IMG/VR virus record: IMGVR_UViG_2541047933_000012
Source: a virus
Lineage: Duplodnaviria > Heunggongvirae > Uroviricota > Caudoviricetes
Reading direction: 5' to 3' (one strand)
Length of the DNA: 38,540 nt
In this document: positions 24,737-24,839 of the stretch, piece after piece
Layout: the number at the start of each line of letters is the position of its first letter
Numbering within the stretch: the stretch's first letter is position 1
The notes under the pieces: generated by a model
Databases searched by the model: none
Told to the model about the DNA's origin: nothing
Seen by the model: only the letters and a program-made list of their open reading frames with translations
Position numbers and translations under genes: made by a program

Positions 24737-24762
24737 TAAATAAAAACCCGCTCAACAGCGGG
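24737..24762 (-). terminator. tR-prime-like intrinsic terminator downstream of the Q gene
   Basis: Minus-strand CCCGCT-GTTG-AGCGGG stem followed by TTTTTATTT. Confidence 0.6.
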
Positions 24763-24810
24763 TTCGTGAAAATTATCAACGGCAGACATACAAAGCCCAT
24801 CGTTGAGAAA

Positions 24811-24839
24811 ATCTTATCCATATTTTTTGAAAAATGCAA
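24811..24839 (-). promoter_or_regulatory. Candidate late promoter PR-prime
   Basis: Minus-strand TTGCAT (-35), 17-bp spacer, TAAGAT (-10), about 30 bp downstream of the Q stop and about 65 nt upstream of the terminator. Confidence 0.45.

Follow-up and report, generated by a model that had tools for sequence, protein, structure and literature searches.

What does the short stretch of DNA between the antiterminator gene Q and the late genes of this prophage do, and is it the site at which Q would act on RNA polymerase? The window (the whole stretch of 38,540 nucleotides that was analyzed; all positions are counted from its first letter) holds an apparently complete SfV-like prophage, from integrase to tail genes, and the chromosome of the type strain ATCC 11775 matches a 201-nt query around the locus at 100%. 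The ORFs for holin, lysozyme, Rz, terminase and structural proteins all lie downstream of the locus on the minus strand. A preliminary description of this DNA had noted a promoter-like element followed by a strong intrinsic terminator, had likened the pair to the qut and 6S RNA arrangement of lambda, and had predicted a short RNA that is abundant in lysogens. From the evidence presented here, we consider the feature to be very probably the cassette, of the lambda Q type, that controls the late genes of a lambdoid (SfV-like) prophage.

By definition, a Q-dependent cassette starts with a Q gene, after which come the promoter PR', a sigma-dependent pause element that the Q-binding element adjoins, a terminator, and the genes farther downstream (PMC9388147). 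The role of the pause element in lambda has also been described (PMC9191641, PMC9388147). The parts that can be recognized at the sequence level, namely a Q protein of family PF03589, a promoter, a pause element, a terminator and late genes on the same strand, were all found in the window (Table 1). Q, which is annotated in RefSeq as an antitermination protein, shares 35% identity with lambda Q in BLASTP (E 1e-43). Its best match among solved structures is lambda Q 7UBM (E 4e-39), the lambda Q entries 4MO1 and 7UBJ were matched as well, and a profile search also matched DnaJ_CXXCXGXG. Relative to lambda Q, the protein carries a 48-aa zinc-motif insertion (residues ~122-169) which contributes two extra CxxCxGxG motifs, giving four DnaJ-like motifs in all. 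Because this insertion falls where lambda Q forms the zinc 'arm' that contacts DNA and sigma, the geometry of Q loading may differ from that in lambda.

Table 1. Features of the late-promoter region and its surroundings, with positions in the window.
Feature	Position	Strand	Basis
Q antiterminator gene, 250 aa, lambda-Q family	25623-24871; stop TAA 24873-24871	-	PF03589, E 3e-54
-35 element TTGCAT, PR' equivalent	24839-24834	-	Same register as lambda TTGACT; mean column identity 0.91 (89 unique relatives)
17-nt spacer TTTTCAAAAAATATGGA, candidate Q-binding element	24833-24817	-	Conservation 0.905, on a par with the hexamers
-10 element TAAGAT	24816-24811	-	Aligned to lambda TAAATT; conservation 0.89
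Predicted +1 (24804) and sigma-dependent pause element AACGAT, +1 to +6	24804-24799	-	Same as lambda PR' +1 to +6
Two matches to the TNYG scrunched-pause consensus: TTTG (+11 to +14), TATG (+15 to +18)	24794-24787	-	Consensus from PMC9191641
Possible 5'-terminal RNA hairpin, +1 to +27	24804-24778	-	9 pairs, one mismatch, -5.7 kcal/mol; part of the MFE fold
Single-stranded A/U-rich linker GAUAAUUUUCAC	24777-24766	-	Most variable part of the RNA; mean column identity 0.60
Intrinsic terminator, tR' equivalent: 9-bp GC-rich stem, GUUG loop, tail UUUUUAUUU	24765-24738	-	Scanner and fold
111-aa ORF, first gene past the terminator	24685-24350	-	ORF list; PHROG 13663
Second, bidirectional terminator after the inserted ORF	24309-24345	both	15-16-bp stem, -20.1 kcal/mol

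Along the minus strand, the stop codon of Q is followed by 31 nt, the -35 element, the 17-nt spacer, the -10 element, 6 nt, and then AACGATGGG from 24804. The hexamers agree with the consensus at 3/6 (TTGCAT) and 4/6 (TAAGAT) positions, 7/12 together. They were not listed by a generic consensus scanner, which gave another pair, GTGACA-18-AAAAAT. Since the hexamers alone are no better than chance, the case for the promoter is made by structure and comparison. Within the 38.5-kb window the composite pattern TTG-N20-TANNNT-N6-AACGAT is found once, and 0 of 100 shuffles contain it. When lambda 43700-45600 was anchored to the window on AACGATGGG (lambda start 44587), the two sequences were found to align without gaps from -35 to +9 with 32/44 identical bases, while after +9 just 7/31 bases are identical. 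The -35, the 17-nt spacer, the -10, the 6-nt segment and positions +1 to +9 of lambda PR' stand in one register with those of the window, and AACGATGGG at +1 to +9 is identical. These results suggest that TTGCAT-17-TAAGAT functions as a sigma-70 promoter reading toward the late genes, with a predicted transcription start at 24804. A promoter-like element between Q and the late genes, as noted in the preliminary description, is thereby borne out, being collinear with lambda PR' and well conserved. The limits given there (24737-24839) and the distance of about 65 nt were also accurate, since +1 to the U-tract spans 63-67 nt.

The hexamer AACGAT can be identified with the lambda pause element at +1 to +6, because the T+14/G+17 numbering used for lambda requires the first A of this hexamer to be +1. 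Lambda PR' is a perfect match to T+14-N-Y+16-G+17 and pauses at +16/+17 (PMC9191641). In the window, TNYG is offset from the lambda position of +14 to +17 and is present at +11 to +14 and at +15 to +18; among the relatives T12 and T13 are invariant, and T15 and T17 are at least 90% conserved. A pause is therefore predicted near +13 and/or +17, its position being uncertain because of this offset. A further motif, CAYGA(T), was seen a few bases 5' of the -35 (24847-24843, minus strand). It is common to window-type and lambda-type loci (for the latter, L102, ~865-871), is absent from the clade with a 273-aa Q, and might be contacted as an upstream promoter element or take part in Q recognition.

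The strong intrinsic terminator proposed about 65 nt past the promoter was confirmed as a 9-bp hairpin and U-tract with compensatory changes. The stem-loop GAACCCGCU-GUUG-AGCGGGUUU (24765-24744, 9 pairs) has a predicted energy of -14.3 kcal/mol, and its tail UUUUUAUUU runs to 24738. In a covariance-model-based alignment of 79 distinct units, 98.9% of the cells of the terminator helix are paired, both-sided changes occur in 5/7 pairs, and the covariation score was reached by 0/500 shuffles. This alignment replaced an earlier one made with MAFFT and RNAalifold on 47 full units, in which the terminator arms were misregistered and the terminator was missed. The homologous site is annotated 'terminator' in the SfV and Ayreon records.

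Initiation at 24804 and termination here would give an RNA of 63-67 nt. The 67-nt form folds as two hairpins (-21.3 kcal/mol, z = -3.24), with an MFE structure made up of a 5'-terminal hairpin at +1 to +27, a 12-nt A/U-rich linker, the terminator hairpin at +40 to +61 and a U tail. That such a short RNA would be abundant in lysogens is a prediction by analogy with the lambda 6S RNA and StxS, and an uncertain one because the hexamers are weak. A covariance model (R1) built from 13 related units found one significant match in the window, at 24742-24804 on the minus strand (87.3 bits, E 5e-19). A second, weak and terminator-only match at 32144-32183 on the plus strand (20.5 bits) is an intrinsic terminator (GAACCTGCTTCGGCAGGTTTTTTTAT) at the end of a 224-aa plus-strand ORF in the immunity region. 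Rfam searched at the gathering score gave no family in the whole window. Permissive thresholds, applied to 24300-25000, brought up mir-374, Trp leader and other matches, which were set aside as chance or generic hairpins.

The 5'-terminal hairpin is plausible, and the evidence for it is suggestive. Across the 79 distinct relatives 95% of its cells are paired, and the changes are one-sided and wobble-preserving; variation at +19 to +22 is mostly by transitions that preserve a G-U, G-C or U-A pair. Among these 79 relatives both-sided pair changes were absent, because the 5' arm doubles as the pause element in the DNA, which is invariant; this covariation test is therefore uninformative. When +11 to +30 was shuffled, the energy of the hairpin gave p = 0.20 for the window and 0.013-0.56 across 13 sequence classes. 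In the lambda, HK-type and Phytobacter-type classes the 5' end pairs with a CGTT-like 3' arm at another distance from +1. Stem-loops at the 5' end bear on mRNA decay in E. coli; if real, the hairpin could shield the short RNA, and the long late mRNA likewise, at the 5' end.

The region from the Q 3' end to the terminator was found by BLAST in 2,436 of 5,426 complete E. coli genomes, with identities that mostly lie at 80-90%, as well as in SfV, mEp460, Ayreon, the Stx2c/Stx2k phages and K-12 Qin. In nearly all relatives the match ends at query position 158-170, equivalent to 24743-24731 of the window, which is at or just past the terminator. Four Q proteins served as queries: those of the window and of lambda, a 68%-identical one from Phytobacter, and a 40%-identical one of 273 aa from E. 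coli. They yielded about 345 loci, from Escherichia, Shigella, Mangrovibacter, Kosakonia, Phytobacter, Atlantibacter, Scandinavium, Buttiauxella and Entomohabitans. In 317 of the 345 loci there is exactly one pause-like motif that stands 6-7 nt past a -10-like hexamer; most of the remainder are cut at a contig end or carry point variants of the motif or hexamer. Two of the loci are labelled as coming from a Veillonella parvula MAG (L006) and a Chryseobacterium sp. (L018). Both have enterobacterial-type Q cassettes, one of them with a Q 94% identical to that of the window, and the taxon labels most likely reflect binning or culture contamination.

Conservation within the cassette is uneven. Among 89 unique window-type units the mean column identity is 0.91 for the -35, 0.905 for the spacer, 0.89 for the -10 and 0.98 for +1 to +9; it is 0.89 for +10 to +17, 0.84 for +18 to +27 and 0.60 for the linker, which falls into several discrete classes among relatives. 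The last 34 nt of the Q coding region score 0.67 in the same units. A terminator was detectable in 165 of 190 unique sequences, and 158 of these 165 predict an RNA of 53-71 nt. Some prophages whose Q is identical to that of lambda have a unit of 58 nt. On these predictions a length of 53-71 nt is normal for the family, and the 194 nt of lambda is the outlier. In two viral contigs (L026 and L038) the 3' arm of the terminator has been replaced at +40 to +65 (GAACCCGCCATCAAGTAGGTATTTTG), so that the hairpin cannot form; Q may be partly dispensable for late transcription in these contigs, or the prophage may be in decay.

The spacer differs by Q clade, being TTTTCAAAAAATATGGA (TTC(A/G)AAAA..TGG) in the window type, TATTGAATAAAATTGGG in the lambda type and TTTCCGGAATCTGTGG in the 273-aa type, whereas AACGATGGG is common to all three clades. 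Such clade-specific spacers are to be expected of a Q-binding element situated in the spacer or overlapping it. From this conservation, the Q-binding element of the window is probably within the 17-nt spacer. Yarnell and Roberts are said to have placed the lambda Q-binding element, in 1992, in or overlapping the spacer.

Natural recombinants were also found. In locus L157 a Q gene and promoter of the window type are joined to the body of the lambda 6S RNA exactly at AACGATGGG, and in lambda loci of the L281 type the junction is at AACGATGGG also. The shared pause element therefore appears to serve as a recombination joint between Q/promoter and late-region modules. The first terminator after 933W PR' (GAACCCGCCGATGCGCGGGTTTTTTTGTACCC; L345, 1222-1255) is identical to that of some window-type or lambda-family units, for example L175; the 933W Q is of a type unrelated to lambda-family Q, yet the terminator module is shared. 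The recombinants, together with the shared 933W terminator, indicate that the cassette is built of exchangeable modules, and that the terminator is the boundary of the cargo site.

Taken together, these observations allow a working model by analogy with lambda. Sigma-70 RNA polymerase would initiate at 24804. Sigma region 2 would then re-bind the -10-like AACGAT at +1 to +6 on the non-template strand, and the paused complex would scrunch near +13 to +17. In the absence of Q, the polymerase would escape and terminate at 24765-24738, freeing the RNA of 63-67 nt. In its presence, Q would bind the element embedded in the promoter (probably the 17-nt spacer) and load onto the paused complex, whereupon the polymerase would become resistant to terminators. 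Read-through would pass this terminator, the 111-aa ORF and the second terminator, and would go on into the lysis genes and some 22 kb of virion genes. The second terminator would act as a further barrier, passable only by the Q-modified polymerase. Pausing, Q loading and Q-dependent read-through at the window cassette are thus predicted from its resemblance to characterized cassettes.

Several other readings have to be weighed against this one. The cassette might be an inactive relic, kept by descent, in which the promoter is silent or Q no longer acts. The weak hexamers would fit such a state, and so would the K-12 Qin copy, which sits in a cryptic prophage. Some relatives are indeed degraded, with the pause variants AAAGAT, AACAAT, AATAAT and GATGAT, or with the terminator arm destroyed as in L026 and L038. 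In the window, however, the pause element and terminator are intact and the prophage is apparently complete from integrase to tail genes. Moreover, 108 E. coli records are at least 99% identical over the 201-nt query, and across genera conservation is concentrated on the functional elements. We therefore regard a relic as distinctly improbable. It is somewhat less probable still that transcription starts elsewhere, for example from GTGACA-18-AAAAAT (24851-24822), and that the hairpin serves mainly to terminate read-through from the Q gene. This pair scores 9/12 against the consensus, above TTGCAT/TAAGAT, and any intrinsic terminator at the cassette would also stop unmodified read-through from upstream. 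But GTGACA is not kept in the more distant relatives while TTGCA, TAnnAT and AACGAT are, and the register with lambda PR' argues that +1 is 24804; the scanner pair was rejected as a promoter since it is not conserved. The lowest weight of all is given to a small protein read from the AUG at +5 to +7 (24800-24798). This AUG lies in the invariant AACGATGGG, its frame stays open for 42 codons in the window, ending at 24678, and its stop overlaps the start of the following 111-aa ORF in ATGATTAA. Against this, the frame varies from 2 to 67 codons in 190 unique relatives and is 2 codons in lambda, it crosses the terminator, and the AUG lacks a Shine-Dalgarno sequence and lies inside the predicted 5' hairpin. 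Because of the variable length, the frame was rejected as a gene.

A different possibility would add to the cassette reading rather than replace it: the terminated RNA may be a trans-acting, Hfq-binding sRNA, with the variable linker as its seed. There is precedent in StxS, an Hfq-dependent sRNA derived from a constitutive late-promoter transcript that is terminated downstream of Q in lysogeny, and according to its authors lambda, 21, phi80, 82 and P22 all make such short PR'-tR' RNAs (PMC7547250). The lambda 6S RNA is likewise associated with Hfq and detected in lysogens (bioRxiv 10.1101/2024.10.31.621285). The predicted RNA has features resembling an Hfq module, namely AUAAUUUUCAC, a hairpin and UUUUUAUUU, an architecture common to many intrinsic terminators; the combination of a U-rich stretch, a terminator hairpin and a poly-U tail is named as an Hfq-binding module in the title of a reference within PMC4104026. 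The occurrence of the linker in discrete classes among relatives also speaks for a seed. On the other hand, the linker is the least conserved segment, as would be expected for unconstrained sequence, and the predicted RNA has neither an Rfam family nor similarity to StxS. StxS itself belongs to a cassette of another Q type (933W/Sakai), in which RNase E processing of a longer transcript leaves it as a 74-nt 3' fragment. A relationship by descent to StxS was ruled out: when model R1 was run on the 933W Q-stx2 region, it scored 20.5 bits through the shared first terminator, outside the StxS region. For this family, the K-12 Qin copy included, neither transcript nor Hfq data were found in the quuQ/ydfT literature or in the Term-seq supplements of eLife 62438, searched by gene name and by estimated coordinate. 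From a coordinate offset, the Qin copy is estimated to lie just past ydfT/quuQ at roughly 1,642,545-1,642,608 on the minus strand of U00096.3. On balance, such an sRNA is unlikely, although it deserves more weight than the readings discussed in the previous paragraph.

A broader form of the same idea, to which we give a similarly low but not negligible probability, is that the late-promoter RNAs of 53-71 nt are an unrecognized and widespread family of prophage sRNAs. An exchangeable linker would then act on mRNAs of the host or the phage as an Hfq-dependent seed. Decay that depends on the 5' end would be held off by the 5' hairpin, in the short RNA as in the long late mRNA. The architecture of such a family would be a 5' hairpin on an invariant pause element, a hypervariable linker, and a terminator hairpin with a U tail. 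If true, this family would be present in nearly half of complete E. coli genomes.

Returning to the preferred reading, a late-gene control cassette, we consider what lies beyond its terminator. Homology with other Q cassettes ends at about 24742. The 0.5-kb island that follows (24200-24740) has a GC content of 31-33% against about 50% in its flanks. Its acidic 111-aa ORF has PHROG 13663, of unknown function, as its sole match, and gave none in Pfam, NCBIfam or PADLOC. No promoter belonging to the ORF itself was found; unless it has one, the ORF would be reached by read-through only. The holin follows past the second terminator, at 24198 (RefSeq coordinates). The leader of the 111-aa ORF (24733-24668, minus strand) can form a 13-bp hairpin, AUUAUAUAACCUC / GAGGUUGUAUGAU (-21.6 kcal/mol, z -3.76), that is predicted to sequester its Shine-Dalgarno sequence and AUG. 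This hairpin, together with the overlap in ATGATTAA between the ORF start and the stop of the frame from the +5 AUG, may be a form of translational control. The slot downstream of PR' is a recognized 'moron' site of lambdoid phages (PMC4104026, PMC3851460); the slot that holds stx in Shiga-toxin phages carries the 111-aa ORF here.

The cassette, if read correctly, defines where the late operon begins and where Q takes control of the lysis and virion genes, and its terminator marks the boundary beyond which mobile cargo has been inserted. To a specialist it is well conserved but ordinary, and holds nothing surprising. Short PR' transcripts (~55-67 nt) would be the rule for lambda-family Q cassettes, with the 194-nt 6S RNA of lambda as the exception. 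A -10 hexamer, 6 nt and AACGATGGG provide a late-promoter signature for enterobacterial prophages, and so abundant a family allows testing of whether the by-product RNAs of PR' have a function.

How, then, does the locus compare with known systems? With PR'-qut-tR' of lambda it shares the Q family PF03589 and the order of Q, promoter, pause element, terminator and late genes, and homology through +9 is supported by the alignment described above. The hexamers of the window are further from the consensus than those of lambda PR', the -35 being TTGCAT where lambda has TTGACT, and the spacer, as candidate Q-binding element, differs too. The likeness to the qut and 6S arrangement drawn in the preliminary description thus stands in part: the cassette order and the 32/44 promoter identity uphold it, whereas the transcribed part is no homologue of the 6S RNA. 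After +9 the transcribed bodies are unrelated, the predicted RNA is 63-67 nt long against 194 nt, and model R1 gave no significant match on the lambda locus. The cassettes of SfV, mEp460, Ayreon, Stx2c/Stx2k and K-12 Qin (ydfT/quuQ) are direct homologues, with 83-90% identity from the Q 3' end to the terminator. Each predicts a two-hairpin RNA like that of the window, of 63-65 nt, with different linker and loop sequences. In the records of these phages and of K-12 Qin, neither the promoter nor the pause element nor the short RNA is annotated. Beyond the terminator, the cargo is cspF/cspB in Qin, genes and tRNAs followed by stx2 in Stx2k, and the 111-aa ORF in the window. The Q proteins and Q-binding elements of the Q21 (PF06530) and Q82 (PF06323) late cassettes are unrelated, and the window Q belongs to neither family; these cassettes nevertheless have an equivalent order of Q gene, PR', pause element and terminator (PMC9388147).
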